64,000 nt of DNA. Source: an uncultured Planctomycetales bacterium (GTDB taxonomy: Bacteria; Omnitrophota; Gorgyraeia; Zapsychrales; JANLHA01). The position numbers were made by a program, and so were the translations under genes. Numbering within the stretch: the first letter of the stretch is position 1; every line of letters begins with the position of its first letter. A model generated the notes under the pieces. That model made no database searches. It worked only from the letters and a program-made list of their open reading frames with translations, and was not told the DNA's origin. The stretch lies in assembly GCA_964474085.1 (NCBI GenBank), contig CAYYRJ010000002.1, positions 70,110-134,109 of the forward strand. Direction: 5' to 3'. This document shows positions 20,942-43,652 of the stretch, piece after piece.

Positions 20942-21055
20942 CGCAAAATCTTTCTGTTTGACATTTTCCCTACCTTAACTTATTATCCAATCATCCCCAG
21001 CTATTACCCCAATGGCTATTTAAAAATATTGTTTAACCTTCCGATCGAGGTGCCA

Positions 21056-27655: not shown

Positions 27656-28474
27656 ATGTTAGGTAAAATACTATCTTCAATTATTCCAAAGTTTAAACCT
27701 CTTGAAGAGGCGCTAATTAAAGAATTATTGGATAATGTTTTAATTACAGACACAAAAGCAAAGTTAAAATCTCAAATAGAAGGAATTAATCATGTGCAAA
27801 GACTTTCTGATGGAAAGGAAGTTGATTTGTATTGTATGAGAGGCGGGAAACCATATCGCGATGATAGTCAGAGAGTAGTTGCCCCAACGGTTGAATTTAA
27901 ATTTGCTAGTATCTCTTTTAAGCCGAGTAATACAAATGAAAAATTAAAAGTAGATTTTTGGTTAGTAGAAGGGATGTTGTTTTCATTAACTTTTAGTAAA
28001 TCACCTAAACCTTATTTAAGTAATGCAGTTATTTTTGTAGAGGAAGTTAAGTTTTATAATCGAGATAATAATATAAGGATGGGGGATGTTAATTTTTTAG
28101 GAATACTAAAGGAGTGGAGTAATAAGTATAATGTTCGGGGTATTAAACCTCCCCTGACGGAATCTTCTATAAAAAGTTTTGTTTTTAATCAAGCGATTAA
28201 TTTTCCCGCAGGTTATTTAGATTTAATAGGAAAAACTGATGGTTGTGATGTTAATGCTTGGCATGTTTTAGGATTAATGGAAATAAGACAAATAGTTTTA
28301 GAGGACAAAAACTATTGGATTATTGCGGAGGCCGATAATATTGGAGTTTTGGCCATTATTGATAGCAAACAAAGCGATAATATTTATTTTCTAGATTTTG
28401 ATGGTTCGGAGCCGCAAGATATGGGGAGAAATTTTGAGGATGTGATGGAAGAAATAATTAAGAAGAATAAGTAG
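27656..28474 (+). CDS. putative cognate immunity protein for toxin 1 (hypothetical, AT-rich)
   Basis: Starts 4 nt after the toxin stop. Composition shifts to AT-rich. No recognisable domain. Confidence 0.5.
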   Translation: MLGKILSSIIPKFKPLEEALIKELLDNVLITDTKAKLKSQIEGINHVQRLSDGKEVDLYCMRGGKPYRDDSQRVVAPTVEFKFASISFKPSNTNEKLKVDFWLVEGMLFSLTFSKSPKPYLSNAVIFVEEVKFYNRDNNIRMGDVNFLGILKEWSNKYNVRGIKPPLTESSIKSFVFNQAINFPAGYLDLIGKTDGCDVNAWHVLGLMEIRQIVLEDKNYWIIAEADNIGVLAIIDSKQSDNIYFLDFDGSEPQDMGRNFEDVMEEIIKKNK

Positions 28475-28592
28475 AGGGAAATATGTGCGTAAAGGGGTCA
28501 CCGAATTAAATTAAAGTTTTAAGTTCTTTGATATTCTTTATTTTCCATCGACGGAGATTGCCGCGTCGCTTCGCTCTTCCTAAGGACGGCGT

Positions 28593-29678
28593 TTGCGCGG
28601 GATTGCCGGACGCTCTTTGACATACAATGCCGAAGATCAGCTTCTTAGTGTCGGGACTGCGACGTATCAATATGACACGGACGGATTTTTGTCCAAAAAG
28701 ACCGACGGCGCTGCTATAACAACGTACAATTATTCTTCGGCCGGCGAATTATTAAGCGCCTCTTTGCCCGACGGACGGACACTCGAGTATATCTATGACC
28801 CGCAAGGTCGACGGATAACCAAAAAGGTTAACAGCCTTGTCGTCGAAAAGTATCTCTGGGCAGGATTGACACAGCTCTTGGCTGTCTACGACGGAGCTGA
28901 TAGTCTTGTGATGCGTTTCGAATACTCGGATGCGCGTGTTCCCAACGCAATGGTCAAGAGTGGCACGACGTATTATTTAAGCTATGACCAAGTCGGGTCG
29001 CTTCGTGCCGTGTATGATGCAACAGGTGCGCTGGTCAAACGCATCGATTATGATTCGTTTGGGAATATCTTAGTCGACACAAATCCGGCGTTCTCTCTTC
29101 CGTTTGGTTTTGCCGGAGGGTTGGATGATCGCGACACCAATTTAGTTCACTTTGGATTCCGCGACTACGATCCCGCAATCGGTCGCTGGACGGCGAAAGA
29201 TCCGATTGGCTTTAACGGCGGGGATGTGGACCTTTACGGTTATGTCCTCAACGATCCGGTGAATTTGGTGGATCCGACGGGTTTGATTATCCCAGGAGAT
29301 CCCGATCCATCGGATGAAATTTTAATTTTCTTAGCTTTGCAAAAGTTTATTGCACAGAATGGGCCTAGGATATCGCAATATTTAGGACAACAAGGAGAGC
29401 GAATAGCAAATATTGCAAAAAATTCTCAAAAAATTCTTATTGAAGGTCGCAATCGGATACCAGATGTTTTAAATAAAACGGAAAAAATAATTGGGGAAGT
29501 AAAAAATGTATGTAGATTGCCTAATACTAAGCAATTGCAGGATTTCTTAACTTATGCCGAGGAAAAAGGATATGATTTTTATTTAAAGGTAAGAGAGAAT
29601 ACTCAATTATCAGCGCCACTTCAAAAGTTAGTGGATGAAGGTAGAATAATTTTAGAAAGAATACTTCCTAAACAGTAA
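28593..29678 (+). CDS. orphan RHS C-terminal cassette (RHS core remnant plus alternative toxin tip with a PD-(D/E)xK nuclease-like motif). It lacks an ATG start.
   Basis: The first ~230 aa are nearly identical to residues ~1820-2050 of toxin 1 (RGIAGRSLTYNAEDQLLSVG...DPIGF). It diverges after DPTGL (29286). The tail has RIPDVLNKTEKIIGEVKNV (PD...E-x-K). The frame opens at a TAA at 28581 with only a TTG at 28593. Confidence 0.75.
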   Translation: MRGIAGRSLTYNAEDQLLSVGTATYQYDTDGFLSKKTDGAAITTYNYSSAGELLSASLPDGRTLEYIYDPQGRRITKKVNSLVVEKYLWAGLTQLLAVYDGADSLVMRFEYSDARVPNAMVKSGTTYYLSYDQVGSLRAVYDATGALVKRIDYDSFGNILVDTNPAFSLPFGFAGGLDDRDTNLVHFGFRDYDPAIGRWTAKDPIGFNGGDVDLYGYVLNDPVNLVDPTGLIIPGDPDPSDEILIFLALQKFIAQNGPRISQYLGQQGERIANIAKNSQKILIEGRNRIPDVLNKTEKIIGEVKNVCRLPNTKQLQDFLTYAEEKGYDFYLKVRENTQLSAPLQKLVDEGRIILERILPKQ

Positions 29679-29724
29679 GATGAGCTATTTTAATATGACA
29701 AACCTCGAGGAGCGGAGTGCATAA

Positions 29725-30480
29725 ATGCAAGAGAACAATAAAAAGGAAGCTCCTCTCAGCAGGAAAGAAATCATGCAGTTTGTGCATTTTCAGCACTATA
29801 TTCTCCCAAGAGAAGAAAAAGATCCGATAAGAAAAGCACGTATTGAAAAGCACAAAAGCGATGCAGCTCCAGTTATTAAAGATTTGAAAGAACTAGGGTT
29901 TACAATTTATGATTCAATGTCGGATATCTTTAGATATAAGTTTAATCATAAAATATATAAAAGAGCAATCCCAGTATTAATAAAATGGTTGTCTAAAATT
30001 GAAAACCTAGAGGTAAAAGATGAAATTATATCTTGTCTGCGTGATAAAAACGGTAGGGACCCTGCGATAGTCCCAATTTTAATTAAAGAATTTTATTTAG
30101 CTGATGAGCTCGCTGCAAAAAATCAATATTGCCATGATTATAAGGCAAATTTAGGTGATGCAATAGGCAATTCGATGAATGACGACTATTTTGATCAGAT
30201 CATTTCAATTGTTCAAAATAAGAAACATGGGGATGCTCGTATAATGTTAGTTTTGGGATTAGCTAAATTGAAAAATCCCAAAGTAGTTGATATATTAATC
30301 GATCTGCTCAAAGATGAGGATGTTCAAGGTCATGCGGTTACAGTATTACGAAAATTAAAGGCTAAAAAAGCAGCGCCTTATGTTGAGCCTTTATTGAATC
30401 ACCCTATCACTTGGATTCGCAACGAAGCAAAGAAATATTTTCTAATTATAGGTAATTCCGGTGACACCTATAAGGAATAA
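29725..30480 (+). CDS. putative immunity protein for orphan cassette 2 (alpha-helical, HEAT/ARM-like repeats)
   Basis: 251 aa, AT-rich, with repeated helical hairpin pattern (..LIDLLKDEDVQGHAVTVLRKLKAKKAAPYVEPLLNHP..). Located directly after the orphan toxin. Confidence 0.45.
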   Translation: MQENNKKEAPLSRKEIMQFVHFQHYILPREEKDPIRKARIEKHKSDAAPVIKDLKELGFTIYDSMSDIFRYKFNHKIYKRAIPVLIKWLSKIENLEVKDEIISCLRDKNGRDPAIVPILIKEFYLADELAAKNQYCHDYKANLGDAIGNSMNDDYFDQIISIVQNKKHGDARIMLVLGLAKLKNPKVVDILIDLLKDEDVQGHAVTVLRKLKAKKAAPYVEPLLNHPITWIRNEAKKYFLIIGNSGDTYKE

Positions 30481-30587
30481 TTCCGGGGACACAAGACTTA
30501 ATTGTTAGTTTGATTTATACAGTTCTTTGACATTTTCTTTGTTAGCTTGACGCAGATTGCTTCGTCGCTCATGCGGAGCTCCTCGCA

Positions 30588-30875
30588 ATGACAGCGTTGC
30601 GCGGGATTGCCGGACGCTCTTTGACATACAATGCCGAAGATCAGCTTCTTAGTGTCGGGAGTGCGACGTATCAATATGATACGGACGGATTTTTGTCCAA
30701 AAAGACTGACGGCGCTTTAGTCACAACGTACAATTATTCTTCCGCCGGCGAATTATTAAGCGCCTCTTTGCCCGACGGACGGACACTCGAGTATGTGTAT
30801 GACCCGCAAGGTCGACGGATAGCCAAAAAAATGGATAAGTCGGACCGTTTCTCATTAACGCATTGTGGCTGTTGA
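30588..30875 (+). pseudogene. third orphan RHS fragment, truncated after about 85 aa by the IS200-like insertion
   Basis: MTALRGIAGRSLTYNAEDQLLSVGSATYQYDTDGFLSKK...YDPQGRRIAKK matches toxin 1. It then diverges into ...MDKSDRFSLTHCGC-stop, where the conserved element-end sequence begins (30840). Confidence 0.7.
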
Positions 30876-31480
30876 GTTTGCGGCAGAAGTGTCCCCCGTC
30901 ACTAAATTACCCCAACTAAATCTTTATGGAGGTAATTTATGGGACGTATAAAACGAATACATTATGGATCAGCTTGTTATCATGTTTGTGCGCGAGGCAA
31001 TAACCGTCGATACATTTTGGAAAAGAGCGAGGCCAAAGATTATTTTTTGGGAGTAGTTGAGCGATATCAAAAACGGATGAAATTTAAAATTTATGCATTT
31101 GTTATTATATTATGGGAAACCATTTTCATTTATTGCTAGAGGTTGACGAACGTTTTGGGATTTCGAAAGTTATGCAAGGGATATTGCTGTCATTTAGTAT
31201 TTGGTATCGACGACGTGAAAAATATGTTGGGCATGTTTGGCAAGGCAGGTTTACAAGTCGATTGGTGGAAAACGAAATTCAATTAGCTGAAAATATTCGA
31301 TATATTCATGCCAACCCGGTTCGGGCGGGAATGGTTAAAGAGGAGATTGATTACAAATGGAGTTCAGCGCTGTGTTGGGGGGACTATAAAGGAGCAGATA
31401 ATAAAATTTTGGGTTTGGAGATTACGCGCGGGGACATTTCTGACGGAAACATAATAATTGCAACGTGTTGAGAAGAAACG
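30840..31480 (+). mobile_element. IS200/IS605-family (Y1 HuH / RAYT-like) insertion carrying a frameshifted transposase
   Basis: Bounded on the left by TCGGACCGTTTCTCAT...GCAGAAGTGTCCCCC, which is also found at 43198-43260. The transposase has HuH (NHFHLLLEV) and catalytic-Tyr region (RYIHANPVRAG) motifs. Confidence 0.6.
30939..31471 (+). pseudogene. IS200-like Y1 transposase split by a +1/-1 frameshift near 31112-31139
   Basis: ORF 30939-31139 (MGRIKRIHYGSACYHVCARGNNRRYIL...KIYAFVI) and ORF 31112-31471 (MGNHFHLLLEV...YIHANPVRAG) join to give the canonical ...YAFVIMGNHFHLL... HuH neighbourhood. The shift lies at the ttatattatggg run. Confidence 0.65.
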
Positions 31481-31493
31481 GTCCCTACTACCT

Positions 31494-31787
31494 ATGACTA
31501 TTTTACGAGAATTTCAAAAGTGGTATCACAGTTATTGTGATGGTGTATGGGAACATCAGCATGGAATAAGAATTGGCACGATTGACAATCCTGGGTGGAG
31601 TATAGAAATTAATTTAATTGGCACTAAAAATGAAAATGTTGAGCTTGAAAGAATTGAAATTGAAAGAAACGATAATGACTGGATTCATGCTTGGGTTGAA
31701 AATAAAGTTTTTAATGCCGCATGCGGGTCATTAAACTTGGAAGAAGTTTTAGAAATATTTTTGAAATGGGCACCAAGCAAAAAATAA
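31494..31787 (+). CDS. small hypothetical protein (possible orphan immunity protein)
   Basis: About 97 aa from the internal Met (MTILREFQKWYHSYCDGVWEHQHG...). AT-rich and located within the toxin/immunity cassette array. Confidence 0.35.
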   Translation: MTILREFQKWYHSYCDGVWEHQHGIRIGTIDNPGWSIEINLIGTKNENVELERIEIERNDNDWIHAWVENKVFNAACGSLNLEEVLEIFLKWAPSKK

Positions 31788-31890
31788 GCAGAACTAAGCC
31801 GGAGGCGTCTAAATAAAAATATATAAAAATAGTATAAAAATAGAGTAAAAATAGGGACAGTGGACTTCCCCCCTACAGAAACTCATACAC

Positions 31891-33660
31891 ATGACAAAAC
31901 TATCTAAAAATATTACAATCCAAATTCTTTTCCATTTAAGCTTTTTTACTATTGGAGGAGCGATTGCATCCGCCGAGATGTTTAAACTCAAATCAGGAAT
32001 TATGTTTGAAGGCAAAGTTATTGAACGTACAAAGGAATATCTAAAAATCGATCGAGGCCTTGGTGTTAATGCGACCTATTATTTAGATGAAATTGAATCT
32101 GAAGGGCCCTCCTCCGAAAGCTCAGTTGTTAGTTCAAGTTTAAATAACCCTCAACGAAAACGTTTGTCCCCTGATGAATACTTTGGATTACGTCAATTAT
32201 TCGAAAACCGTCAGTTTGAGGAACTTGACAAATCCTTTAATTCGTTTCAAAAAGAGTTTGAAGCCGATCACCTCAAGGAAGACAAAATTTCTGACGCGTT
32301 AAGCATATTTTCATCAACACAAGAGACCGATAAAATCTTATTTGATGAGTGGCAAAAACAATTTCCAAACAGCTTTGCGCCGTATCTGGCACGAGCAAAG
32401 TATTACAGGAATCTTGGCTGGGAAGCCCGAGGTGGCAGATGGGCCACAGAAACAACAAATGCGCAATTTGAAATGATGCATTCTTATTTTGAAGTAGCTC
32501 TGCGCGAATGCAAAAAAGCCTTAGAAATAAATCCGCAATTATTACCTGCTTATCGAACGATAATCGATGTGTACAATGTAGAGAGCAATGACAAAATTGA
32601 AGATGTCATAAACGATGCTTTAAAAATTTCACCAGAATCATACCTTATTCGCTCTTTAATCATGATTGGATTTACTCCTCGATGGGGTGGGAGCTATGAA
32701 AAAATGGAAGAATTTGCAAAAGATTCTGATCAATATCTAGATAAAAATCCCTATTTGAAAGTTCTTCGGGGATTTATATACGAGGATCAAGGTGATATTT
32801 TAGAAAATAGACACGAATCTAACAATAAACGGATTAATACAGTTTTTAAAAATGCCTTCCCCCTACTGACTCCAATGATTGATACTCTTGAAAAAGCTGC
32901 CGAAACTCACCATGAATATACGGATGAAGAAAAAATGAAAGTTAGACAAGCAATCGAATTATATAGCCGTGCTATATCTTTCGGGGAGAATGCAGGTTTT
33001 TATAAAGATCGTGCTGATGCTTACATGATTTTAGAAGATACCCCAGCCGCTTTAAAAGATTTAAAACGAGCTATCGAATTAAGCCCACTAAACTCGGATT
33101 TTTATGAAAGTTGTGCACGAATTTATTATGATAACGGTGATTATAAGTCTGCTCTTAAATTTGCTAATCTGGCAGATCGTTTAGGATTTAGCCCGGAGAG
33201 ATTAGTGTCTTGGAAAAAATGGGCGTCAGAATATCTTGTTGTTTTAGGTTATCAAGCTTATCAAGCTAATAATTATCCTGGAGCTATTGAAAAGTTAACG
33301 GATGCTTTAAAATTTAACCCGTCCAACGAACAAAGTTATTATTGGCGAGGCCGTGTAAAATTGATGCAAAACAATTATGACCTTGCTTTAGAAGATTTTA
33401 AACAAGCTACTAAAATTAATCCCCAATATTTTGAGCCTTATCAAAACATTGGATATATTTATGCAAAACAAAGAAGATTGCAGGAAAGCTTGGAGTATCT
33501 AAACAAGGCTCTTGAGATTAAGCCCAATGATGCAAGGACTTTATACGATCGCGCTCATGCGTACCATCTTTTGGGTGAGGATAAAAAAGCGGATATCGAC
33601 ATAAAAAAATCTTGTGATCTTGGCGAAAAAGAAGCTTGTCGAATCAGCGCATCTAAGTAG
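31891..33660 (+). CDS. secreted TPR-repeat protein
   Basis: Signal peptide (MTKLSKNITIQILFHLSFFTIGGAIASA). Multiple TPR-like units in the C-terminal half (AYQANNYPGAIEKLTDALKFNPSNEQSYYWRGRV..., ...YQNIGYIYAKQRRLQESLEYLNKALEIKPNDARTLYDRAHAY...). Confidence 0.6.
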   Translation: MTKLSKNITIQILFHLSFFTIGGAIASAEMFKLKSGIMFEGKVIERTKEYLKIDRGLGVNATYYLDEIESEGPSSESSVVSSSLNNPQRKRLSPDEYFGLRQLFENRQFEELDKSFNSFQKEFEADHLKEDKISDALSIFSSTQETDKILFDEWQKQFPNSFAPYLARAKYYRNLGWEARGGRWATETTNAQFEMMHSYFEVALRECKKALEINPQLLPAYRTIIDVYNVESNDKIEDVINDALKISPESYLIRSLIMIGFTPRWGGSYEKMEEFAKDSDQYLDKNPYLKVLRGFIYEDQGDILENRHESNNKRINTVFKNAFPLLTPMIDTLEKAAETHHEYTDEEKMKVRQAIELYSRAISFGENAGFYKDRADAYMILEDTPAALKDLKRAIELSPLNSDFYESCARIYYDNGDYKSALKFANLADRLGFSPERLVSWKKWASEYLVVLGYQAYQANNYPGAIEKLTDALKFNPSNEQSYYWRGRVKLMQNNYDLALEDFKQATKINPQYFEPYQNIGYIYAKQRRLQESLEYLNKALEIKPNDARTLYDRAHAYHLLGEDKKADIDIKKSCDLGEKEACRISASK

Positions 33661-33864
33661 TTATTATACCCACCCTATAGAAGTAGAGTAATCGGGACCG
33701 TGGTAGACTCTAAATTAACTGAACCGTCTTTTCATAAGAATTGGCTCCTTTTGTTTGAGCTCAATTCTACACAATTTGGTCAATTTTGTTAACTGGGGTC
33801 AGTATACAGCTATTACCCCAATGGCTATTTAAAAATATTGTTTAACCTTCCGCTCGAGGTGCCA

Positions 33865-36800
33865 ATGTCTAGATTTTTTAGTTTTACAACAAAATTCTTC
33901 CTGACAACATTTTTTGTTTCTGCTGTTGTGTGTTTTTCGTCAAAACTCGAAGCCGTTGTCCCTGCATTGTCATCACCGACTTTATCGACCGTCACCGCTG
34001 GCGACGCGCAGGTTATCCTTAAGTGGACCTCTGTTACAGATGCGACCAATTATATCGTCCGCTATGGGACGGCTTCAGGTGTTTTTACAAAAGCCGTTAA
34101 TGCCGGCAATGTCACGACCTTTACGGTCAGCGGATTAGCGAATGGGACGGCGTATTATTTTGTTGTCGCCGCAAGCAATGCCTCCGGTAAAAGTGCCAAC
34201 TCTTCTCAAAAAAGCGCCCGACCACAAATTTCGGCGCCGGTTTTAAATTCAGCGATGGGCGGCGTTGGTCAGGTTGTTTTAAATTGGAACAGTGTCCCGA
34301 CGGCAACGAATTATTCGGTCAAATACGGGACCGCCTGGGGAAAATACACAAAAGTTGTGGACGTCGGCGATGTCACGACATTTACTTTGAGTGGTTTATC
34401 CAATGGCACAATGTACTTTTTTGTTGTTTCGGCAAACAATGCCGCTAGCAGCAGTTCAAACTCGGCCCAAAAAATTGCGACACCCCGACTGCCCACCCCC
34501 ACTCTTGTCAGCGTAACCCCTGGGAATATGAAAGCGACTTTGACATGGAGCGGTGTTGTTGGTGCCGAAAGTTATCTGGTCAAATGGAAAACTCCGTCAG
34601 ACCAGTATGCAAAAGCGATGAATATCGGGAATGTGAATTCCTATACGATCAAAGGGTTAAGCAATGGGACGACGTATTATTTTACGGTTGCCGCCGCCGT
34701 TGGAACATTAAGCGTCAGTCTCGATGCGCCGGGCATCAATGCGACACCGAGAATATCTACAGCGACCGCACCTGCGGCGCCGACTTTAAATTCTCCGACG
34801 GTTGGTAATGCCCAAGTGACATTAAACTGGAATGTCCCCAACAATAATGGTTCACCGATTACAGGGTACGATATTCAATACGGGACTCTAGAGAGCGGTT
34901 TGTTTAACAATATCTGGAATGATGACAATGTCCCCGGCGCTGTCATTGGAGGATTGACGAATGGGACCAATTATCAGTTTAGGGTCATTGCCCGCAATGC
35001 GATGGGTAGCAGTTTACCTTCTTCTGCTGTTAGCGCTCAACCTTTGATCTTAGGAACGCCAGCCCAAATGCAATATCCCTCTTTCGGCGCAACAATTTAT
35101 CTTCCTAGCGTCAATTTTTCATGGAACGCTGGTATCGGAGCCGATGCCTACAAAGTTATCGTCGGAACAAGCGTTGGAGCAAATAATTTGGCAGACAGCG
35201 GCGAACTAACCGATTTAAATTACACTGTTTTTAATGTTCCTCTTACCGGCGTCCCCATTTATGTGCGCCTCTCAAGTTTGATTAACGGACTATGGGTTTC
35301 ACAAGAATATCAATATTTAACTTCCGCCAATCGCGTCATTAAGTTTCAAGGGTCAGGTTCAGGCGTCAAAGAATATTATGACCCTTCGGGCTGGTGGCAA
35401 AAGGTGACGTTTAATCTCACCACGGATTTTGATGTTGTTGCACAAAATCCGCGGCTTAACGCCGACGGGATTCATGTCGACCATGATTTGGTGCGAAAAA
35501 CAGGGACACTTCATTTTTGGGGAACCGCCCAGGATTACTTTAACGGCGCATTAAACGAATTCAGTTTTGACCGTTCGCAAAACATCGATATCCAAACCTT
35601 GCAAGGGATTTTTTCATACTCTAAAACACGAATGGATGACGTTTATATTTCGTTTGACGTCTCCCCTTCCTCAACCCTGCCTTATGTCGTAAATCTCCAA
35701 TATGCGGCATTTATCCCGATTGTCCGAGCCAGCATGGTTATGCCTTACCCATGGAATTTAGGATACATCGACAATGCCACGTACGATATTCCTGCAACCG
35801 ACGATTTTCAAAGGCCCTGCGATATTTCAATCGATCTACAAAAGGGTGATCTCGTACCCGGAGACACGGTATCCGTCTATGCTTCAACCTTGGTCAACCC
35901 TTCAGATTCTTTACAATGGCAAATCCTGCCTGGCAAAGACAGCGACGCGCGCGCGAATATCAGCCCATCGGGCGCTAACGCCCAAATGGCGACCATCAGT
36001 GATATCCGAGGAAAAGGAGAACTGGTTTTAAAAATTTCAAACCCCTCGATTGCCGGCTGTCAAAAAGAAATTCCCTTAAATGTCGGTTGCGGCTGTGCCA
36101 GCAGTGAAAACATGTGCACCTTAGACGGGAAATATAATTTGTCGAGCATAGACGTTACCCTCGATCTAGGCCGGACTAAACGAGGAAAATCCGCTGGAAG
36201 CCTTCAGTTAAAGACGGACAAAATTTCGGCCGATAATTCGACGCCTAAAAAACTTAAAGTTTTTGCCGTTGAGAGCACAACAGAAACGCTCTACAGCAGC
36301 AACAATATTTTACGGCAAGTTGTAACGCCGGAAATTTTTGTAGATATTACCCCTGTCGATGCCTACCGCTACGACATCAAATACTATGCTCTAACCGACA
36401 AAGGTACTAAGGTCGGCGGCTTTTATCAAATCGGCGGCGCGGCCATACCTCTAAAAACTTGGCGAATCGAAAACCCTGACCTTTCCTCGACGATTTATAA
36501 TCGTTTAAAAATCACCGAAACCCAAAATGCAATTGTCAAAACGTATGAATACATTTGGAACCAAAACTTAGGCCAATGGCAGCTTAAAACCGGCGATGGT
36601 CTACAAAATGAAAACCTCGTTGAACAAACCATCAACGGCAATCGTGTTGTGACGCGGACATTGAGTGATAGCGCCGGAGTCGTTGCGTCCAAAACCCAGA
36701 CGACATTTAAAGACATTGCCGGGCCCGATGGGATTTCGCAAAATATTATTAAAACAATCGAAGACCCTGCCGGGATCGCCTTAACGACGAACAGCACGTG

Positions 36801-39800
36801 GGACGATGGCGGCAGCGGGCGTTTGTTGTCACAAGTTTTTCCTGACGGCTCTTGGGTCCGATACGAATACGATGCGACTGGCCGAACGACCATGGAAGTC
36901 ACATCGTGGCTGGATTCCCCCGTTGGGACACCTGCAAATTTAGCACGGGCGATTTATTATGATTATTCTCTACAGGATGCTTCGGACGCAAATTTGCCGC
37001 AAGACATTCGCAAACCGCGGCTGATCACCGAAAAGATTCTTGACAAAGTTGTTTCTAAAACGTTTTATGTCTATCAAAAATCCGCCGACAATTATTTGAC
37101 GAACATTATCGAGCGCGCATCGACTCCCGGCGCTGCCTATGGCGCCGCCGCAAATCAGCGGACAAAAACTGTCATGTTTCCTTATGTTTTTGGGTCCGTT
37201 GAAGCATGGCGAGTCCAGAGCGTCACGACTCCCGACGGAAAAATGGACACCTACACCTACAGTTTGGGAACATATACGCCCAACAGCAACCCCAAACTTC
37301 CCGGGACATTTACCGCAGGAGCAGGAACTGATGAACGGACCTCGATTATTCACGGGCTTGCTTCCTCTGCCTTTGGTATTGCCAATAAATCGACGGCAGA
37401 ACAGCACATCAGCAATTTTAAAGGAGAAAAATTATTAGAACTGCGCTACGTCTATAACGGCACAAGCCCGCAATTAGTCGCAACCACCCATTGGCGCTAT
37501 GATGAGTACGGCCATGTCACCAATGTTTATAACTCTGACGGGACAGAAAGCGTAAGCCTGTGGGGATGCTGTAACGCAAAATCCGAAACCGATGTCAACG
37601 GTATCGCGCGTCAATATGTCTATGATGCGCTTGACCGCATTCAAACCGAAATCAAGCTCGCCAGCCCCCACGATATCACAACCAGCTACACCTACGACGG
37701 GGCCGGCCGCCAAAAAACACAAACGATCAGCTCTAACGGTTTGAGCCTTTTGACAAACACGACGTATGACGCCGCCGGACGGCTTAAGACCCAAACCAAT
37801 CAGGCCGGCCATATCAGCACACAAAGCTACAGCACGGACAATCGCACGACAACACTCACACGTCCCGGGGGCGCAACCGAAATTACCACCCAATACATCG
37901 ACGGACAAACCAAAAACATAACCGGCACGGGGAATCTCGCGCAGTTCTATACTTATGGGGTCAACCCAGACGGCTCACGCTGGACGCAGATTAATTTTGC
38001 CAGCGAGACTTCGCCTAACTGGGAAAAGACGACCGTTGACCTTTTGGGCCGCACGATTAAAGTTGAAAAACCAGGATATAATTTATCGACGCTGGTAAGT
38101 GAATATTTTTATAATAATCTCGGACAATTGGTCCGCACAAAAACTCCCGGGCAAGCGGACACTTTATATGAATACGATGCCGTAGGCCAGCTTACCCGAA
38201 GCGGTCTTGACCGCAATGCCAATGGACTTTTGGATTTAAGTTCGATTGATCGGATTACTGATACTGACACTTCTTTTGCATTAATTGGTGGTAACTGGTG
38301 GCAGCAAACTTTACAAAAAGTTTATGCCGCCGACTTTAATACAACAGCGACAACGACGGATACCCAACGCACTCGCCTTAACGGATTGGGAACCGCAAAC
38401 TTAACAGAGGAGTCTGTCACAATCGATATTCATGGGAATCAAACGATTTCGCAAACTTATATTGATCGATTGGCCAAAACCACAACGCGCGTCGTTGATG
38501 ACCCGGATTCAAACATCAACCAAAGCACCGTGACGACCAACGGACTTTTGACGTCCTCCAAAAGTAAAACAGGCACAACCGTTTCGTATGGCTATGACAG
38601 CCTCGAACGCCAAACCGCTGTGACAGACCCTCGGACCGGGACGACAATAACCCAATACAATCCTACAACCGGTCAAGTTGATTGGGTCGAAGACCCCGAA
38701 GGCCGACGGACAAGTTTTTCTTATGACCCGCTTTCGGGACAAAAAATAAGCGAAACAAACGCATTAGGTAAAGTGACCCGTTTTGCTTACAGCACCCGCA
38801 ACGAGCTGACCCACATTTGGGGCGATGTTCCCTACCCTGTGCGCTACCTCTTTGATAATTATGGACGGCTATCGCAGATGCATACTTGGCGCAGTGGAAC
38901 ATCGTGGAATGCGGCGGCTTTTCCAGTAAGTATGGACAGCCAAAAAGATGTCACGACGTGGAACTATCAGGAAGCAACCGGCCTTCTGACCAGCAAAACA
39001 GACGCCGCCGGTCAAAGCACTTCCTATACGTACACGCCCGAAGGCAAACTCAAAACACGCACATGGGCTCGGCTTAACAGCGGAAGTCCAACGGTGACAA
39101 CCTACAACTATACGACCGATACCGGGGAGTTAACCGGCATTGATTACTCGAATTTGACGCCTGATGTGACTTTTGCCTATGATCGCTTGGGTCGGCAAAA
39201 GACTATCACCGACGCTTTAGGTAATCGCACTTTTGGCTACAATACAAAACTCCAACCCGAAACCGAAAACATTACCGGCTTGTATAACAAACTGCTGACC
39301 CGAAGTTACGCGGCCAGCGGTGTTTTGGGACGCTTAAACGGATTTAATACAGGCGCCGGCTACAGCGTTACTTACGGCTATGATGCCGTCGGGCGTTTCA
39401 ATTCTGTCGGCTGGAATGTCAGCGGACAAACGGGCAGCGGCACATATAATTTTGTCCCTAACTCCGACTTATTGCAAAGTTTGACAACCCCGTCGGGGTT
39501 AACGACAAGCTTAAGCTATGAACCTCACCGCGACTTAAAGACGCAGGTCAAAAACCAGTTTGGCGCGGCGACGGTTTCGCAGTACGATTACACTTATGAT
39601 GCGCTGGGCCAAAGAACGTCGGTCAAAAACAGCGGGACGGCTTTCAGCAGTCCGGCGTTTAATAAATTTGCTTATAACTTTCGCAATGAATTAAGCGAAT
39701 CCTCGCGGTATCTGGGCGCGGACGTTTCTCTGCTGACAAGTCCTGTCTTGGGAGAATACCGGCATTTTGATTATGACCCCATCGGCAATCGCGGCAATAT

Positions 39801-41085
39801 CACCGCCGCGGGCAATGCCGGAAGCTACACGACCAACAATCGCAATCAATATCTGATCGCCGCTCTTCCTACCGGCGGGACCAATACATTCACGCATGAC
39901 TCCGACGGGAATCTAACCGAAATTACAGGCGCACAAAACATCGTTTACGCCTACGATGCCGAAAACCGGCTGGTCAGCGCAACTCCCAAAACGCCGGCGG
40001 TCAATGACAAAAAAATCGAGCTTTCCTACGACTATCAAGGCCGGCGGGTGCGAAAGGTTGTTTCGCAGTACAATGGCAGTGCCTGGATAATAGCGGCAGA
40101 CAAGCGTTTTGTTTATGACGGCTGGAACATGATCGAAGAGCAAACCGTTACGCCGGCCTCTTCACGGTTTTATGTTTGGGGATTGGATCTTTCGCAGTCT
40201 TTGCAGGGCGCAGGCGGCATCGGTGGCTTGTTGGCCACAGTCAATGGGACAGCGACGGATCATTTCCTATACGATGGCAACGGAAACGTCGGACAGTTGA
40301 TTAATTCCGTTGGCGGATCACTTGACGCGCAGTATGAATACGACCCGTACGGAAATTTAGTTGCCTCAAACGGATCACTTAGCGCAAGCAATCCATTTCG
40401 TTTTAGCACAAAGTATCTAGATACCGAAACCGGCCTCTACTACTATGGCTATCGCTACTACGATCCCAAAGACGGCAGATGGACGAGTAGAGATCCGATT
40501 GAGGAGGATGGTGGATTAAATCTTTATGCGTTTGTCCATAATGATGCTGTTGATTCTTTTGATTTATATGGACTTTATCGCGATTGGTTGCCTATCTTGG
40601 CTGACCGCGGACGGAAAGTTCACGCGAAATTAAAAGAATACGGTGACACATATCGAAAAGACCTTAGATGGGACATGTCTTTAAAAGAACTAGGCATCAT
40701 TGATGCGCTTGATAAACCTGATATCTTAGATACCGATGACCGTCTTATTTGGGAACTTAAGCCCGGTTCTCATCGAGCTCCAATTTTTTATAAAAGAGAT
40801 GATGCTCAAATGCAAAGATATATGGACAAAACCTGTTATCGATTAGGTGATCCCAATTTAATATTTTCACAAAAAACTTATATCGGAGATGTCAGTGATA
40901 CTTGGGGGACATGGAATATTTATGTTTCTCCCGGACGGCTTGGCTTTCTCTATTATGATGTAACACGCAAACAACAAAAAAGGCGAGCAGGCAACTCTGA
41001 CTGGAGCGGCAACCCAACAGAGAATTTTATGCCACCGATAATGAACCCTGTGTTACCCTTGGGCCCAACTCCAATAATATTCTAA
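33865..41085 (+). CDS. second giant secreted YD-repeat / RHS polymorphic toxin (2,406 aa from ATG): signal peptide, about 5 FN3-like, unassigned beta-rich region, YD repeats, RHS core, PD-ExK-like C-terminal tip
   Basis: The N-terminus and about 60 nt of upstream leader are almost identical to toxin 1 (MSRFFSFTTKFFLT...). Repeated W..V.DATNY.V.YGT FN3-like units. YD repeats (YEYDATGRTT, YTYDGAGRQKT, YDAAGRLKT...). RHS core ...YYDPKDGRWTSRDPI...DLYGL (ends 40575). The tail has KPDILDTDDRLIWELKPG. Confidence 0.9.
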   Translation: MSRFFSFTTKFFLTTFFVSAVVCFSSKLEAVVPALSSPTLSTVTAGDAQVILKWTSVTDATNYIVRYGTASGVFTKAVNAGNVTTFTVSGLANGTAYYFVVAASNASGKSANSSQKSARPQISAPVLNSAMGGVGQVVLNWNSVPTATNYSVKYGTAWGKYTKVVDVGDVTTFTLSGLSNGTMYFFVVSANNAASSSSNSAQKIATPRLPTPTLVSVTPGNMKATLTWSGVVGAESYLVKWKTPSDQYAKAMNIGNVNSYTIKGLSNGTTYYFTVAAAVGTLSVSLDAPGINATPRISTATAPAAPTLNSPTVGNAQVTLNWNVPNNNGSPITGYDIQYGTLESGLFNNIWNDDNVPGAVIGGLTNGTNYQFRVIARNAMGSSLPSSAVSAQPLILGTPAQMQYPSFGATIYLPSVNFSWNAGIGADAYKVIVGTSVGANNLADSGELTDLNYTVFNVPLTGVPIYVRLSSLINGLWVSQEYQYLTSANRVIKFQGSGSGVKEYYDPSGWWQKVTFNLTTDFDVVAQNPRLNADGIHVDHDLVRKTGTLHFWGTAQDYFNGALNEFSFDRSQNIDIQTLQGIFSYSKTRMDDVYISFDVSPSSTLPYVVNLQYAAFIPIVRASMVMPYPWNLGYIDNATYDIPATDDFQRPCDISIDLQKGDLVPGDTVSVYASTLVNPSDSLQWQILPGKDSDARANISPSGANAQMATISDIRGKGELVLKISNPSIAGCQKEIPLNVGCGCASSENMCTLDGKYNLSSIDVTLDLGRTKRGKSAGSLQLKTDKISADNSTPKKLKVFAVESTTETLYSSNNILRQVVTPEIFVDITPVDAYRYDIKYYALTDKGTKVGGFYQIGGAAIPLKTWRIENPDLSSTIYNRLKITETQNAIVKTYEYIWNQNLGQWQLKTGDGLQNENLVEQTINGNRVVTRTLSDSAGVVASKTQTTFKDIAGPDGISQNIIKTIEDPAGIALTTNSTWDDGGSGRLLSQVFPDGSWVRYEYDATGRTTMEVTSWLDSPVGTPANLARAIYYDYSLQDASDANLPQDIRKPRLITEKILDKVVSKTFYVYQKSADNYLTNIIERASTPGAAYGAAANQRTKTVMFPYVFGSVEAWRVQSVTTPDGKMDTYTYSLGTYTPNSNPKLPGTFTAGAGTDERTSIIHGLASSAFGIANKSTAEQHISNFKGEKLLELRYVYNGTSPQLVATTHWRYDEYGHVTNVYNSDGTESVSLWGCCNAKSETDVNGIARQYVYDALDRIQTEIKLASPHDITTSYTYDGAGRQKTQTISSNGLSLLTNTTYDAAGRLKTQTNQAGHISTQSYSTDNRTTTLTRPGGATEITTQYIDGQTKNITGTGNLAQFYTYGVNPDGSRWTQINFASETSPNWEKTTVDLLGRTIKVEKPGYNLSTLVSEYFYNNLGQLVRTKTPGQADTLYEYDAVGQLTRSGLDRNANGLLDLSSIDRITDTDTSFALIGGNWWQQTLQKVYAADFNTTATTTDTQRTRLNGLGTANLTEESVTIDIHGNQTISQTYIDRLAKTTTRVVDDPDSNINQSTVTTNGLLTSSKSKTGTTVSYGYDSLERQTAVTDPRTGTTITQYNPTTGQVDWVEDPEGRRTSFSYDPLSGQKISETNALGKVTRFAYSTRNELTHIWGDVPYPVRYLFDNYGRLSQMHTWRSGTSWNAAAFPVSMDSQKDVTTWNYQEATGLLTSKTDAAGQSTSYTYTPEGKLKTRTWARLNSGSPTVTTYNYTTDTGELTGIDYSNLTPDVTFAYDRLGRQKTITDALGNRTFGYNTKLQPETENITGLYNKLLTRSYAASGVLGRLNGFNTGAGYSVTYGYDAVGRFNSVGWNVSGQTGSGTYNFVPNSDLLQSLTTPSGLTTSLSYEPHRDLKTQVKNQFGAATVSQYDYTYDALGQRTSVKNSGTAFSSPAFNKFAYNFRNELSESSRYLGADVSLLTSPVLGEYRHFDYDPIGNRGNITAAGNAGSYTTNNRNQYLIAALPTGGTNTFTHDSDGNLTEITGAQNIVYAYDAENRLVSATPKTPAVNDKKIELSYDYQGRRVRKVVSQYNGSAWIIAADKRFVYDGWNMIEEQTVTPASSRFYVWGLDLSQSLQGAGGIGGLLATVNGTATDHFLYDGNGNVGQLINSVGGSLDAQYEYDPYGNLVASNGSLSASNPFRFSTKYLDTETGLYYYGYRYYDPKDGRWTSRDPIEEDGGLNLYAFVHNDAVDSFDLYGLYRDWLPILADRGRKVHAKLKEYGDTYRKDLRWDMSLKELGIIDALDKPDILDTDDRLIWELKPGSHRAPIFYKRDDAQMQRYMDKTCYRLGDPNLIFSQKTYIGDVSDTWGTWNIYVSPGRLGFLYYDVTRKQQKRRAGNSDWSGNPTENFMPPIMNPVLPLGPTPIIF

Positions 41086-41103
41086 ATTAACAGGCAGTTC
41101 TAT

Positions 41104-41805
41104 ATGATCAACCGCGAAATATTATACAAAAAGATGGAATTCTTGGTCGACGACTTATTAAAAGAAAATCCTCCTTTTGATAAAGCTTCACAAAATCCTA
41201 CACTTTTGAATTTTTACTCTACATACATTAACTATTACAGCCAATTAACTGAAAATCAACGAAAGGACATTATCAAAGCACAGAGATGTAGCGCAAAATG
41301 GCATATCCATAATTTTCTTTTTGGATTCAAAAGGGATCAACCATATCCCTACCCAGAATTAAAAAAAATTATTACTGATTTTAGAATTTGGTATCAAACA
41401 AAAGAAAGTATAATCCCGGGGTCTGTAACAACTACAGAAAAGTTTGATGCTTTAAATATCTTAAAGGAAAAGATGGCAAAGCATTTTCCTCAATTCTCTA
41501 TGAGCAAAACATTAAAAATACCGGGGTTTTATGTATTCTCATTTAATGTCTTTGAAGATACGGATTTGATTATTGCTTTTGATCGAGGAAAATACGGAGG
41601 CTCTCTGAGTATATATATTAGTTTAAATAAACCAGAAATGTTTCTTAATATATCCAATTTTTACGGATACGGTTGTTGTTGTTTCTCTTATAACACAAAA
41701 AAAGAATTTCTCCGCCGTTTAGATTTAACATTCGAAGTTCTTGACTTTTTTTATCCGAAGTTTCATAAAGCAATTAAAGAAGCTTACGAAGAGTCGGATA
41801 AATAG
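41104..41805 (+). CDS. putative cognate immunity protein for toxin 2 (hypothetical)
   Basis: Starts 19 nt after the toxin stop. AT-rich. No recognisable domain. Confidence 0.45.
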   Translation: MINREILYKKMEFLVDDLLKENPPFDKASQNPTLLNFYSTYINYYSQLTENQRKDIIKAQRCSAKWHIHNFLFGFKRDQPYPYPELKKIITDFRIWYQTKESIIPGSVTTTEKFDALNILKEKMAKHFPQFSMSKTLKIPGFYVFSFNVFEDTDLIIAFDRGKYGGSLSIYISLNKPEMFLNISNFYGYGCCCFSYNTKKEFLRRLDLTFEVLDFFYPKFHKAIKEAYEESDK

Positions 41806-42079
41806 GGCGAAAAACGAAACACTTCCAAACGTACCGGGTTCAGAATAAGTTTTAAAGAAAATGGCGTTGCTAGTAAAAAACGGAATACTTCCAAACGTGC
41901 CGTATTCAGAATATGACACTCGCGAGACGGAGCTCAATTAGTTTCGGTGTTGATCACCAAATGCGTCAACAAGGCTATCGTGCATTTTTAGGAGTTAAAG
42001 AACCGTATAGGCAAATTGTTGATGAGGCGTTGCTAAAACAAAGTTAGACCCGGCACGTTCAGAAATGTTCCGGTTTCCT

Positions 42080-42255
42080 TAAAAGCCTCCGTTCTGGAGG
42101 ATTTAGATTGTAAATCCCCCAAACCTGCCTTTGGCAGGCAAGCCCCCTTTCTTGCAGACTGGGCCAGATGAAGTGGCAATCTGAAAAGTGGATTCCCGCT
42201 TTCGCGGGAATGACAAAAAAGACAATGTCATCCCTGCGAAAGCAGGGATCCAAGG
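42080..42255 (+). repeat. hairpin-dense repeat, copy A (about 176 bp)
   Basis: About 98% identical to the core of copy B. Contains cctccgttctggagg, ggaggatttagattgtaaatccccc, cctgcctttggcagg, attcccgctttcgcgggaat and tccctgcgaaagcaggga stem-loops, including GAAA/TTTC tetraloops. Confidence 0.85.
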
Positions 42256-42525
42256 TCTACGTGATGTATGATTTAAAAATTTTATGTTCTGGGCTTTTAG
42301 CTAAAAGACGTTTTATCAAAATTAAGCATAGCTATAATTTATAAAAATATTCCAGGAATCCTGGGAATACTTTTGCATGTTAAAAGATATGATTGGGTTG
42401 CATAAAACGTCTTATTCAATTCGCATAATAGCAACTGAAGGCGGAGTTCTTGTCGGCAAAAATACCCCTGCCGACCTAAAAGACAAAACCTTAATATTTG
42501 AAACAATCGAGAGGAGAATGCCTTA

Positions 42526-43185
42526 ATGAGGGAAGTCACTCGGCTAAGCAATCAATTCCTTCTCGAAATTGCAAAACATGTCGGCAAATATGATTTTTCA
42601 AATAAAATCAAAGAGCAATCTTTCGAGAAAAAAACAGATTTTGGTAAAGTGTGCATGCACTTTTCCTTTATTAAATTTTCTGAATATTTTGGCATAACTC
42701 TCGATGTTGGAATACGATTTGACGATTTAGAAAATCTTATCCATGAAACAAATAATCTTATTCCCCAAAGAAGAAAAAAAGAAACATATTCTATGGGTTG
42801 TGAATTAGGAAATCTATCTCAAGGAAAACCTAAATGCTGGGCAATCGAAAAAGATGATGACATTATTCCAGTTGTTTTAGAAATTATTTCTTTTTTTGAA
42901 AGAGTAGGAATACCTTATCTAGAAAAATACTCTGATATGCGCAATGCAAAAGAAGCTTTGTCAGGTGATGGCCCCTCTGCATGGCTTTATAGTGCAATTG
43001 ATAATGAACGAGCAAAAAGAGCCGTTGGCTTGACTTTTTTGTTAGATAATATGGACGCAGTATTGGCTTTAGCAAAAATCAAAGAGCAATATTTAAAAGA
43101 AAGAAATGATTTTGGGTTAGCTTCTTTTCAATCCTTTGTGAAGTTTTTAATAGAAAAAGACAAGCAGGATAAACAACAAGGTTAA
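42526..43185 (+). CDS. hypothetical protein (219 aa) carried between repeat copies A and B
   Basis: AT-rich ORF with no recognisable motif. Confidence 0.4.
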   Translation: MREVTRLSNQFLLEIAKHVGKYDFSNKIKEQSFEKKTDFGKVCMHFSFIKFSEYFGITLDVGIRFDDLENLIHETNNLIPQRRKKETYSMGCELGNLSQGKPKCWAIEKDDDIIPVVLEIISFFERVGIPYLEKYSDMRNAKEALSGDGPSAWLYSAIDNERAKRAVGLTFLLDNMDAVLALAKIKEQYLKERNDFGLASFQSFVKFLIEKDKQDKQQG

Positions 43186-43296
43186 TTCGAGATTAATTCG
43201 GACCGTTTTTACATAACCTGTTGATTTTAGCTTAAAGTCCAGCAGAAGTGTCCCCGAAATCGTTTTTAGTTCTTTGAAAAAGTAAAAAGTATTTTC

Positions 43297-43510
43297 AAAA
43301 GCCTCCGCTCTGGAGGATTTAGATTGTAAATCCCCCAAACCTGCCTTTGGCAGGCGAGCCCCCTTTCTTGCAGACTGGGCCAGATGAAGTGGCAATCTGA
43401 AAAGTGGATTCCCGCTTTCGCGGGAATGACAAAATTTTCGCGGGAATGACAGAAATATGAGGGAATGACAAAAGAGGTAGTGTCATCCCTGCGAAAGCAG
43501 GGATCCAAGG
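43297..43510 (+). repeat. hairpin-dense repeat, copy B (about 214 bp, with internal triplication of a (c)gggaatgaca unit)
   Basis: Direct-orientation copy of A. Preceded at 43198-43277 by the junction motifs TCGGACCGTTTTT, AGCAGAAGTGTCCCCGAAA and AGTTCTTTGA. Confidence 0.85.
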
Positions 43511-43652
43511 CTTAAAAATTGCTAAAACATTTCCGGAAGTGTCGGGTTCAAGCTGAAGGTGGCTTTTTCATAGATGTTCCGATGAGCAGTTCTGATGAGC
43601 AGCGCAAATGCCTGCCGAAAAGCAAACGTGGATGTTTGGGAAGTAAATTGAA

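Follow-up and report, generated by a model that had tools for sequence, protein, structure and literature searches.

A RAYT-family transposase and its atypical 53-nt repeat in an RHS orphan array of Candidatus Omnitrophota

What do short motifs signify that return at one module boundary after another in a bacterial toxin/immunity region, and do they move the cassettes between them? The question is raised by a stretch of 64,000 nucleotides (hereafter the window; positions are counted from its first letter) from contig CAYYRJ010000002.1 of assembly GCA_964474085.1, deposited as an uncultured Planctomycetales bacterium and placed by GTDB in Omnitrophota, in which a full-length RHS gene is followed by shortened RHS cassettes with toxin and immunity genes. 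A first-pass annotation had described three motif families, (i) to (iii), at these boundaries and had interpreted them as a common signature for the mobilisation of cassettes, perhaps linked to a Y1 transposase, rather than as a product of simple RHS homologous recombination. The strings it listed are all present within 0-3 nt of where it had placed them, the main ones withstand shuffling (3 matches vs 0 for the full element described below, 3 vs 0.17 for motif (ii)), and they do recur at module boundaries, with the same junction architecture at three junctions of one external locus (L036) and at one of another (L031). Nonetheless, we arrive at a different reading, to which we assign a probability of roughly 0.7: an RHS orphan array, in which the flanks of the cassettes would suffice for ordinary recombination, has become home to a RAYT system whose repeats are atypical in that they form no hairpin.

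A 53-nt repeat and its transposase gene

Motifs (iii) and (i) always co-occur at a fixed distance and are therefore not separate families, but the 5' and 3' ends of a single 53-nt element, GGACCGTTTYT-N32/33-AGAARTGTCC(CC). Three copies reside in the window, at 30842-30894 (+), 31432-31484 (-), and 43200-43253 (+), where 100 shuffles gave an expectation of 0.00 for the composite pattern. The ends of the element are conserved and imperfectly inverted (GGACCGTTTCT ... AGAAGTGTCCCC), and the centre is variable in sequence and fixed in length (32 nt). The first two copies were also recovered by a repeat search as a 55-nt inverted repeat (I1), and the third is a solo copy (43192-43255, +; element at 43200-43253) with a centre of 33 nt and the 5' extension GATTAATTC, whose orthologue in L031 is 87% identical by blastn (L031 7347-7472 vs window 43291-43167).

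The inverted pair encloses the gene of a RAYT-family Y1 (HUH) transposase (30939-31471, +), which is frameshifted and appears as two open reading frames (ORFs; 30939-31139 and 31112-31471). The frame breaks near 31101-31114, and deletion of 5 nt yields a 175-aa protein with an HUH motif (HFH) and the catalytic tyrosine (YIHANP). This frame-corrected protein scores 95 bits against the NCBIfam model REP_Tyr_transpos (NF047646, cutoff 80) and 26.6 bits, below the cutoff of 55, against the IS200 model (NF033573); it matches Pfam Y1_Tnp, and its single match in the PDB is E. coli TnpA-REP (4ER8). The curated-model score, the HUH motif, the tyrosine, and the inverted flanking copies of a cognate repeat all identify a RAYT, and the suggestion that the motifs might mark IS200/IS605-like ends fails with the IS200 score. 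Without an intact reading frame, the window gene is a pseudogene of the family; an independent Logan assembly (L003) displays the identical frameshift, and intact 175-aa homologues exist at 87% identity.

The two arms of the RAYT unit are alike in build. The left arm (30834-30896, +) consists of GATAAGTC, the 53-nt element (30842-30894), and a final CC, its left end GATAAG[TA][GC]GGACCG being common to the window and the external loci L002 and L167. The right arm (31430-31492, -) comprises the element (31432-31484) with a short terminal extension and overlaps the last ~14 codons of the gene; equivalent right arms were found at L001, L002, L029, L161, L162, and L167. Accordingly built are the 87% homologues (L001, L002), with a left arm GATAAGTGGGACCGTTTCT...CAGAAGTGTCCCC and an inverted right counterpart that again overlaps the last codons, and the same arms persist on homologues of 69% (L167), 50-51% (L161, L162-164), and 47% (L029) identity, until at 38% the gene is flanked by different repeats. 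The suspected link between motifs (i) and (iii) and the Y1 transposase was thus correct: together these motifs make up the arms that flank the RAYT gene in inverted orientation, and its diverged homologues keep them. Some of these stand directly downstream of dnaE, encoding DNA polymerase III alpha (L015 781-4831, L162 1-2469), and in L162-164 also upstream of an HU gene, so that dnaE-RAYT looks like a conserved housekeeping position in other Omnitrophota. This synteny (L015, L162-164) fits single-copy vertical inheritance, and elsewhere copies are nested (L002) or, as in the window, located in an RHS array.

One genome per species was scanned with the strict pattern, which admits exact ends only, so that the resulting copy counts are lower bounds. 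It returned 37 loci, about 30 of which belong to metagenome-assembled genomes (MAGs) of Candidatus Omnitrophota or to Planctomycetales-labelled MAGs syntenic with the window. Nearly all external copies span exactly 53 nt, with near-invariant ends and a variable 32-nt centre, and up to 8 strict copies occur per MAG (8 each in REEB252 and MAG_AAO_H125.54). Most copies are solo, a RAYT gene being present at only a few of the scanned loci, and 32/37 Omnitrophota copies are found within no open frame of 120 codons or more, as opposed to chance matches in other phyla, 4/5 of which fall inside long ORFs. Around 20 solo loci carry no RHS sequence in the fetched stretch (up to 8 kb). The element is hence repetitive, dispersed, and extragenic in the manner of REP/REPIN sequences, and such a distribution together with a RAYT gene is the signature of a RAYT with its cognate repeat (PMC3116915, PMC3337134, PMC5581495). 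It does not bear out a signature dedicated to cassette mobilisation, given that the element is mostly solo and often RHS-free and that the RAYT of the window is frameshifted.

Likeness to the known REP/REPIN-RAYT systems (E. coli TnpA-REP, 4ER8; Pseudomonas fluorescens REPINs; PMC3116915, PMC3337134, PMC5581495) extends further: a Y1/HUH protein passes the RAYT model, its gene lies between two inverted short repeats, the same repeat is dispersed, mostly solo, and extragenic, inverted ends are conserved around a non-conserved spacer of one dominant spacing, and the association of repeat and RAYT is kept across diverged homologues, some in housekeeping synteny. One could instead regard the RAYT unit as an autonomous insertion sequence (IS)-like transposon with terminal inverted repeats of ~60 nt, not as a domesticated RAYT/REP, and its solo copies as akin to miniature inverted-repeat transposable elements (MITEs). 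In favour of this are L002, where one intact copy accompanies five or more 5'-truncated ones in nested or tandem order, and the presence of 87%-identical copies in settings unrelated to one another (the window, L002, and L001, where integrases and a primase lie alongside), as well as the lack of a stable hairpin in the element and the decay of the window copy to a pseudogene, as is common for IS elements. However, the equivalog model for RAYT accepts the protein and that for IS200 does not. More distant homologues bearing the same arms occur as one gene each within dnaE-RAYT-HU synteny, which is typical of vertically inherited RAYTs (PMC5581495), and a single arm already amounts to a full 53-nt element, where a MITE would be composed of two IS ends; we judge an IS-like transposon unlikely. 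With IS200/IS605 elements the unit shares the catalytic fold and motifs (Pfam Y1_Tnp), its small size, and the absence of an evident target-site duplication, but its arms are long and inverted, where those elements have a separate subterminal hairpin on either side, and it has no tnpB.

Some individual loci deserve description. At L002 (6600-7620 and 9650-10545), one intact RAYT unit comes after a series of at least five that are nested or in tandem and lack their 5' part; these truncated copies restart at GATAAG[TA]GGGACCGTTTCT, each after a different break point in the preceding copy, which suggests repeated insertion in the same orientation or one-ended events of an active element. L167 (1-2776) contains a tRNA-Ser(tga) gene (1506-1593), the left arm, an intact RAYT gene (69%), the right arm, and, ~12 nt later, an RHS core fragment; two additional partial copies of the right arm are located at its positions 1-110. 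A 56-nt variant of the element, found in L006, L010, L026, L032, and L038, holds an internal tandem of the 3'-end motif, GGACCGTTTCTCAAC-CCAATCGGAGAACGGCCCC-AAAC-CCAATCGGAGAAGTGTCCCC.

The spacer between cassettes

The array into which this unit is set begins with a teneurin-like RHS/YD main gene of 2207 aa (21029-27652) and an immunity-type ORF (immunity gene 1, 27656-28474). Orphan cassette 2 (28593-29678) combines an RHS core fragment with a Tox-REase-7 toxin and is followed by its HEAT-repeat immunity gene (29725-30480), both assigned by Pfam; orphan cassette 3 is seen as an ORF for a 95-aa RHS fragment (30588-30875). Over 683 nt without gaps, the core fragment of orphan 2 (28593-29275, +) is 92.7% identical to the main gene (26495-27177), and the truncated core fragment of orphan 3 (30597-30832, +) is ~96% identical to it (246 nt at 95.9% in the alignment). 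In both orphans the core homology begins at TTGCGCGG (28593, 30597). Core fragments truncated at their 5' end and homologous to a full-length RHS gene, distinct C-terminal toxins, and immunity genes make this an RHS orphan array, in which the repeat search recovered the families D1 and D9 and Pfam the domains RHS_repeat/YD-shell, Tox-REase-7, HEAT, and Imm53. As in the arrays of Salmonella (PMC3967940) and in Rhs/contact-dependent inhibition (CDI) systems (PMC3150448), a main RHS gene precedes 5'-truncated cores with different C-terminal toxins and immunity genes, and the core homology of 93-96% over hundreds of nt is enough for homologous recombination. Unlike in those arrays, all orphans in two genomes share the 5' breakpoint TTGCGCGG and a non-RHS spacer built of repeats, and a RAYT unit replaces one of the toxins.

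This spacer, of ~110-180 nt, precedes each orphan cassette and consists of a 13-mer, the motif AGTTCTTTGA(Y)AT, and a palindromic repeat GATTGC...GCAATGAC that abuts the core at TTGCGCGG. The 13-mer, GTGTCCCCGGAAT, corresponds to the last 8 nt of the 53-nt element plus CGGAAT and is found in either orientation. Its reverse complement, ATTCCGGKGACAC, is exact at 30455 and 30480, 25 nt apart, and has a one-mismatch match at 43248; with up to two mismatches there are 5 matches vs 1.78 expected from shuffles. Motif (ii), AGTTCTTTGA, had been placed at 28522, 30521, and 43268, and these are indeed its only three exact matches in the 64 kb, all on the (+) strand and all at junctions, with 0.17 expected and no shuffle reaching three. 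Equally well founded was a ~90-bp upstream block said to be common to orphans 2 and 3: their mutual homology begins exactly at AGTTCTTTGA (28522/30521) and extends into the RHS core at 89.8% identity. A short variant at L167 716-754, GGACCGTTTTTCAATAACACCGAAAAATTCGGTGGACAC, joins the 5' end of the element to a 13-mer-like motif.

In the window, parts of this spacer recur at three junctions. Between immunity gene 1 and orphan 2 (junction J2, 28475-28592, +, ending where the RHS core starts at 28593), it holds GGGGTCACCGAAT (28494-28506), AGTTCTTTGA (28522-28531), and a degenerate palindromic block starting with GATTGCCGCGTCGCT (28556-28570). The motif (i) copy claimed at 28494 is present as a 13-mer-like string, but GGGGTCACCGAAT requires an indel to match the 13-mer and scores below 8 bits on the position weight matrix (PWM) built from external copies, and it is best read as a decayed direct copy that resembles the 3' end of the element. 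In front of orphan 3 (J3, 30455-30596, +, with the core following at 30597), the inverted 13-mer occurs as ATTCCGGTGACAC (30455-30467, inside the last codons of the HEAT ORF) and again as ATTCCGGGGACAC (30480-30492), followed by AGTTCTTTGA (30521-30530) and the palindromic repeat GATTGCTTCGTCGCT...CTCCTCGCAATGAC (30555-30592). The third is a junction tail behind the solo element (43256-43296, +), which reads CGAAATCGTTTTT-AGTTCTTTGA(43268-43277)-AAAAG, is conserved in L031 and in junction J1 of L036, and runs up to a direct repeat, copy B (43297-43510).

The same arrangement holds outside the window. In L036, a syntenic locus of another MAG, three junctions that follow different immunity genes show one order: the immunity stop codon, one or two copies of AATAATTCCGGTGACAC, ~35 nt, AGTTCTTTGACAT, ~20 nt, and a palindromic block (GATTGC...CGTCGCT...CTCCTCGCAAT), then TTGCGCGG and the RHS core. 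In J1 of L036 a full 53-nt element stands between the 13-mer and the AGTTCTTTGA-type motif (GGTTCTTTGA), reading ...CAGAAGTGTCCCCGGAATCGTTTTTGGTTCTTTGACAT; its flanking spacer is too unlike J2 and J3 to serve as a clean empty site, and we rejected it as a readout of simple element insertion into a target site. In L028 (6955-7120), where there is no RHS sequence, two copies of the palindromic repeat (GATTGCTTCGTCGC[TC]..CTCCTCGCAATGAC) lie ~330 nt from a solo 53-nt element, and since the repeat recurs there, the upstream block of the window belongs to a dispersed repeat family of its own; the same segment also holds a hairpin of the type GATTCCCG...CGGGAATGAC. The spacer is pieced together from dispersed repeats that have decayed, and it was copied along with every cassette. 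It is reminiscent of the enterobacterial bacterial interspersed mosaic elements (BIMEs), which are likewise intergenic mosaics of REP-type repeats in alternating orientation and other short motifs, although the one described here is bound to the junctions of cassettes and spreads together with these, and its components are unrelated in sequence. A metagenome scan with the pattern TCAAAGAACYN{4,30}WTYCGGKGAC proved too permissive: it gave at least 120 loci, which among the matches listed were all chance and in no case included the 53-nt element.

Could the spacer be conserved for its own function, as a promoter or RNA element that serves the orphan immunity genes? Such a regulatory element, centred above all on AGTTCTTTGAYAT, would explain why GTTCTTTGA is invariant in seven junctions from three genomes (alignment A4) amid variable surroundings; the sequence contains a TTGACA/TTGATA-like hexamer, and orphan immunity genes require expression. 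Yet Rfam gave no match in the window, the motif is also present at 43268, where no gene follows on that strand, and a sigma-70 scan predicted no site at AGTTCTTTGAYAT, which is not promoter-like because a -10 partner is missing. We consider selection on a regulatory element quite improbable.

The end of orphan cassette 3 shows where the RAYT unit came to lie. Both with the main gene and with junction 2 of L036, its homology extends no further than 30830-30832, and the letters that come next, GATAAGTCGGACCG, already form the left end of the RAYT unit. The left arm starts 1-2 nt past the end of the homology to the main gene (30832), and the unit of ~660 nt abuts and truncates the cassette after 236 nt of core. 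At its other side, the right arm stops 1-2 nt before the ATG of an Imm53 immunity gene (31494-31787, +; Pfam Imm53, 3e-31), which thus lies directly 3' of it. Spacer and core of the window (30476-30830) are 92% identical to L036 2422-2776, where the equivalent cassette continues for ~850 nt of RHS C-terminal (RHS-CT)/toxin sequence and then reaches an Imm53 gene; the Imm53 homologues of L036 are each preceded by an RHS-CT. The toxin continuation in L036, together with the right arm 1-2 nt from the Imm53 start, means that the RAYT unit occupies the toxin-encoding place of cassette 3. The Imm53 gene of the window is an orphan immunity gene, its toxin partner having been replaced by a transposase pseudogene.

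Minor repeats and the edges of the array

Beyond the Imm53 gene lie a TPR/DUF4034 gene (31891-33660), a second full-length RHS gene (33838-41085), and two small ORFs (41104-41805 and 42526-43185); exosortase genes neighbour the array upstream, and an AbiEii module and glycosyltransferase genes downstream. Rfam and tRNA scans of the window gave no match. A 113-nt repeat with 96% identity (20998-21110 and 33807-33919) extends, at both full-length RHS genes, from the upstream region into the first codons, and the N-terminal parts of the two share further fn3-repeat homology (repeat families D2, D4, and D8). At the downstream edge, an AbiEii-type toxin gene and its upstream 211-aa partner (43653-45088, -) are situated where L031 and L036 possess an HTH-type gene and a following ORF; the edge of the array is variable too, as these syntenic loci carry other genes there.

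The TPR gene is flanked by a direct repeat of ~30 nt, with an upstream copy at 31832-31863 (+), TATARAARTAGAGT..AATMGGGACMGTGG, that contains GGGACAGTGG (31854) and a downstream copy at 33675-33703 (+) that contains GGGACCGTGG (33694). Their local alignment scores 27 vs 15.7 +/- 2.5 for shuffles, a value reached in 1/500, and they may be the footprint of an insertion of the TPR/DUF4034 gene between two RHS arrays. The motif GGGAC[AC]GTGG had been described as flanking this gene and as related to motif (iii): it does flank the gene (31854, 33694), but is not related to motif (iii) or the 53-nt element, and the ~30-nt repeat displays no significant similarity to the RAYT arm. Likewise unsupported is the match to motif (iii) reported at 33718: GAACCGTCTTTTCAT (33721) stays below 8 bits on the external PWM, which by its exact-match design puts diverged copies at a disadvantage, and an alignment of the region after the TPR gene with the L002 arm is no better than shuffles (103/300 and 91/300 reach it). 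Both GAACCGTCTTTTCAT and GGGACMGTGG were discarded as relics of the element.

These minor cases are also where a further explanation, chance similarity of short matches in AT-rich intergenic DNA, finds its place. The relation of GAACCGTCTTTTCAT and GGGACMGTGG to the 53-nt element is no better than in shuffles, and the 13-mer with up to two mismatches is only mildly enriched; for these, chance holds. For the main motifs it is refuted, with the full element at 3 vs 0 expected, AGTTCTTTGA at 3 vs 0.17, and the same sequences in the same order in independent MAGs, and as an account of the junctions as a whole it is scarcely credible.

Further repeats surround the solo element. Direct repeats A and B (42081-42255 and 43297-43510; 138 nt at 99% plus 50 nt at 92%) are made of perfect small hairpins (GGATTCCCGCTTTCGCGGGAATGAC, GTCATCCCTGCGAAAGCAGGGATCC) and bracket the ORF 42526-43185 and the solo element, copy B having extra 20-nt units of TTTCGCGGGAATGACA. 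A family AAAACG(R)AAYACTTCCAAACGTRCCGKRTTCAGAATA follows immunity genes (41810-41847, 41876-41913, 42048-42076, inverted, and 43525-43550 in the window; 2395-2410 in L036), and an inverted pair of it bounds the segment from A to B.

Exchange of cassettes and the role of the transposase

How, then, might cassettes be exchanged? We distinguish two layers. In the first, the 53-nt element is the cognate repeat of a RAYT-family HUH/Y1 transposase in Candidatus Omnitrophota, and the enzyme, by analogy to TnpA-REP and IS200/IS605 transposases, would cut and rejoin single-stranded DNA at the ends of the element. In the second, the repeat-derived spacer has been copied along with the cassettes, and together with an RHS core fragment of 240-680 nt it provides homology on either side of each variable toxin and immunity pair, through which cassettes would be gained, lost, and swapped by RecA-type homologous recombination. 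RAYT elements would be secondary colonisers, or hitch-hikers, of recombination-prone arrays. Ordinary homologous recombination is sufficient, because RHS core homology (683 nt at 92.7%, 246 nt at 95.9%) lies to the left and the conserved spacer to the right. In Salmonella, 522 bp at 95% identity is the proposed substrate of an observed recombination between main and orphan rhs genes (PMC3967940). Between the window and L036, spacer and core are 92% identical, as opposed to 80% for the flanking glycosyltransferase genes, a contrast suggesting that whole cassette junctions have been exchanged horizontally or have evolved in concert.

A more active part for the transposase is conceivable, in which the 13-mers would be sites of cleavage and joining and whole toxin/immunity cassettes would move as single-stranded DNA into an integron-like array. 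Immediately behind the stop codon of immunity genes that are unrelated to each other, HEAT in the window and Imm53 in L036, stands ATTCCGGKGACAC, the reverse complement of the last 8 nt of the element plus CGGAAT, and this speaks for such cassette capture. So do the position of RAYT units beside or inside RHS arrays in 4/11 loci, abutting a truncated RHS core in the window and L167, and a spacer better conserved than the flanking housekeeping genes. Against this, the left boundary between core and toxin lies inside coding sequence, and no motif scan gave a match there; the 13-mer does not keep one orientation towards AGTTCTTTGA, being direct at 28494 and 43248 and inverted at 30455 and 30480; the RAYT of the window is a pseudogene, solo elements elsewhere are not linked to RHS, and other RAYT homologues with the same arms adjoin dnaE or HU; moreover, no excision products or empty sites were found. 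We deem cassette capture very unlikely. The comparison with integron attC cassettes is apt insofar as the array consists of variable promoter-less cargo, each ending in a short, imperfectly conserved site. It ends with the left boundary of the variable part inside coding sequence, with the absence of R''/R' core sites, and with a scan of the ORFs between 19.3 and 48 kb, within the array and next to it, which gave no integrase domain and, as the sole recombinase-type gene, the RAYT pseudogene. An integron-like site-specific system would have a dedicated recombinase next to the array and a site at either end of each cassette, and no motif scan gave a match at the core/toxin boundary.

Several points nevertheless weigh against colonisation of the array by a RAYT-repeat system with ordinary recombination of its cassettes. 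A first group concerns the repeat itself. With a mean folding z of 0.11 among 29 distinct copies, and of 0.37 when only the centre is folded, it shows no stable hairpin, no covarying pairs were found in the centre, and the consensus fold has only an imperfect terminal stem of ~9 bp; for want of a convincing hairpin and of covariation in the centre, the element departs from classical REP/REPIN sequences, and folding of the hairpin or REPIN type was rejected for it (z ~0, no covariation). REP sequences carry a conserved GTAG or CGTC tetranucleotide at one end (PMC3733652), and none is conserved in 36 aligned copies of our element. The strict copy number, at most 8 per MAG as a lower bound from exact-end matches, is low. 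In summary of these differences from REP/REPIN systems, the ends are 11-12 nt and not themselves palindromic, the element has no GTAG/CGTC tag and folds no better than shuffled sequence, a fixed-length 32-nt centre without covariation is coupled to a low strict copy number, and one RAYT subclade is multicopy or nested (L002) and present in RHS toxin arrays. The 53-nt repeat works like REP/REPIN, yet fits them neither in hairpin nor in tetranucleotide.

A second group concerns the array. The part that the spacer would play in homologous recombination is deduced from architecture and from the contrast of 92% vs 80%. The RAYT gene adjoins RHS fragments in 4/11 independent loci (the window, L002, L029, and L167), in L002 downstream of an RHS-like giant gene and in L029 at the end of three RHS-CT cassettes, which is more than a passive coloniser predicts unless arrays are strongly permissive or the element travels with cassettes. 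Some of these four cases may share ancestry, and the adjacency is suggestive, no demonstration of cassette mobilisation driven by the RAYT. Finally, the exact 13-mer at the 3' boundaries of cassettes and its identity to the 3' end of the element are unexplained by homology alone. Taken to its furthest, a RAYT subclade tied to RHS arrays might cleave the 13-mers of the spacer, generate 5'- or 3'-truncated RHS fragments, and move or delete cassettes as single-stranded DNA; if true, this would be an HUH-transposase-driven counterpart of the integron for polymorphic toxins, although we see it as a long shot.

In the literature searched, no paper was found that treats Omnitrophota together with RAYT or REP, and none of the matches listed linked RAYT genes with RHS arrays. 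Our observations extend RAYT-repeat systems to Candidatus Omnitrophota, and a repeat with conserved ends of 11-12 nt, a fixed span of 53 nt, and no hairpin bears on the question of how RAYT enzymes recognise their substrates. For RHS loci, they show that a conserved spacer derived from repeats can give an orphan array its organisation, and the adjacency of RAYT and RHS in 4/11 loci provides a testable lead on whether HUH transposases help to generate orphan toxin modules.

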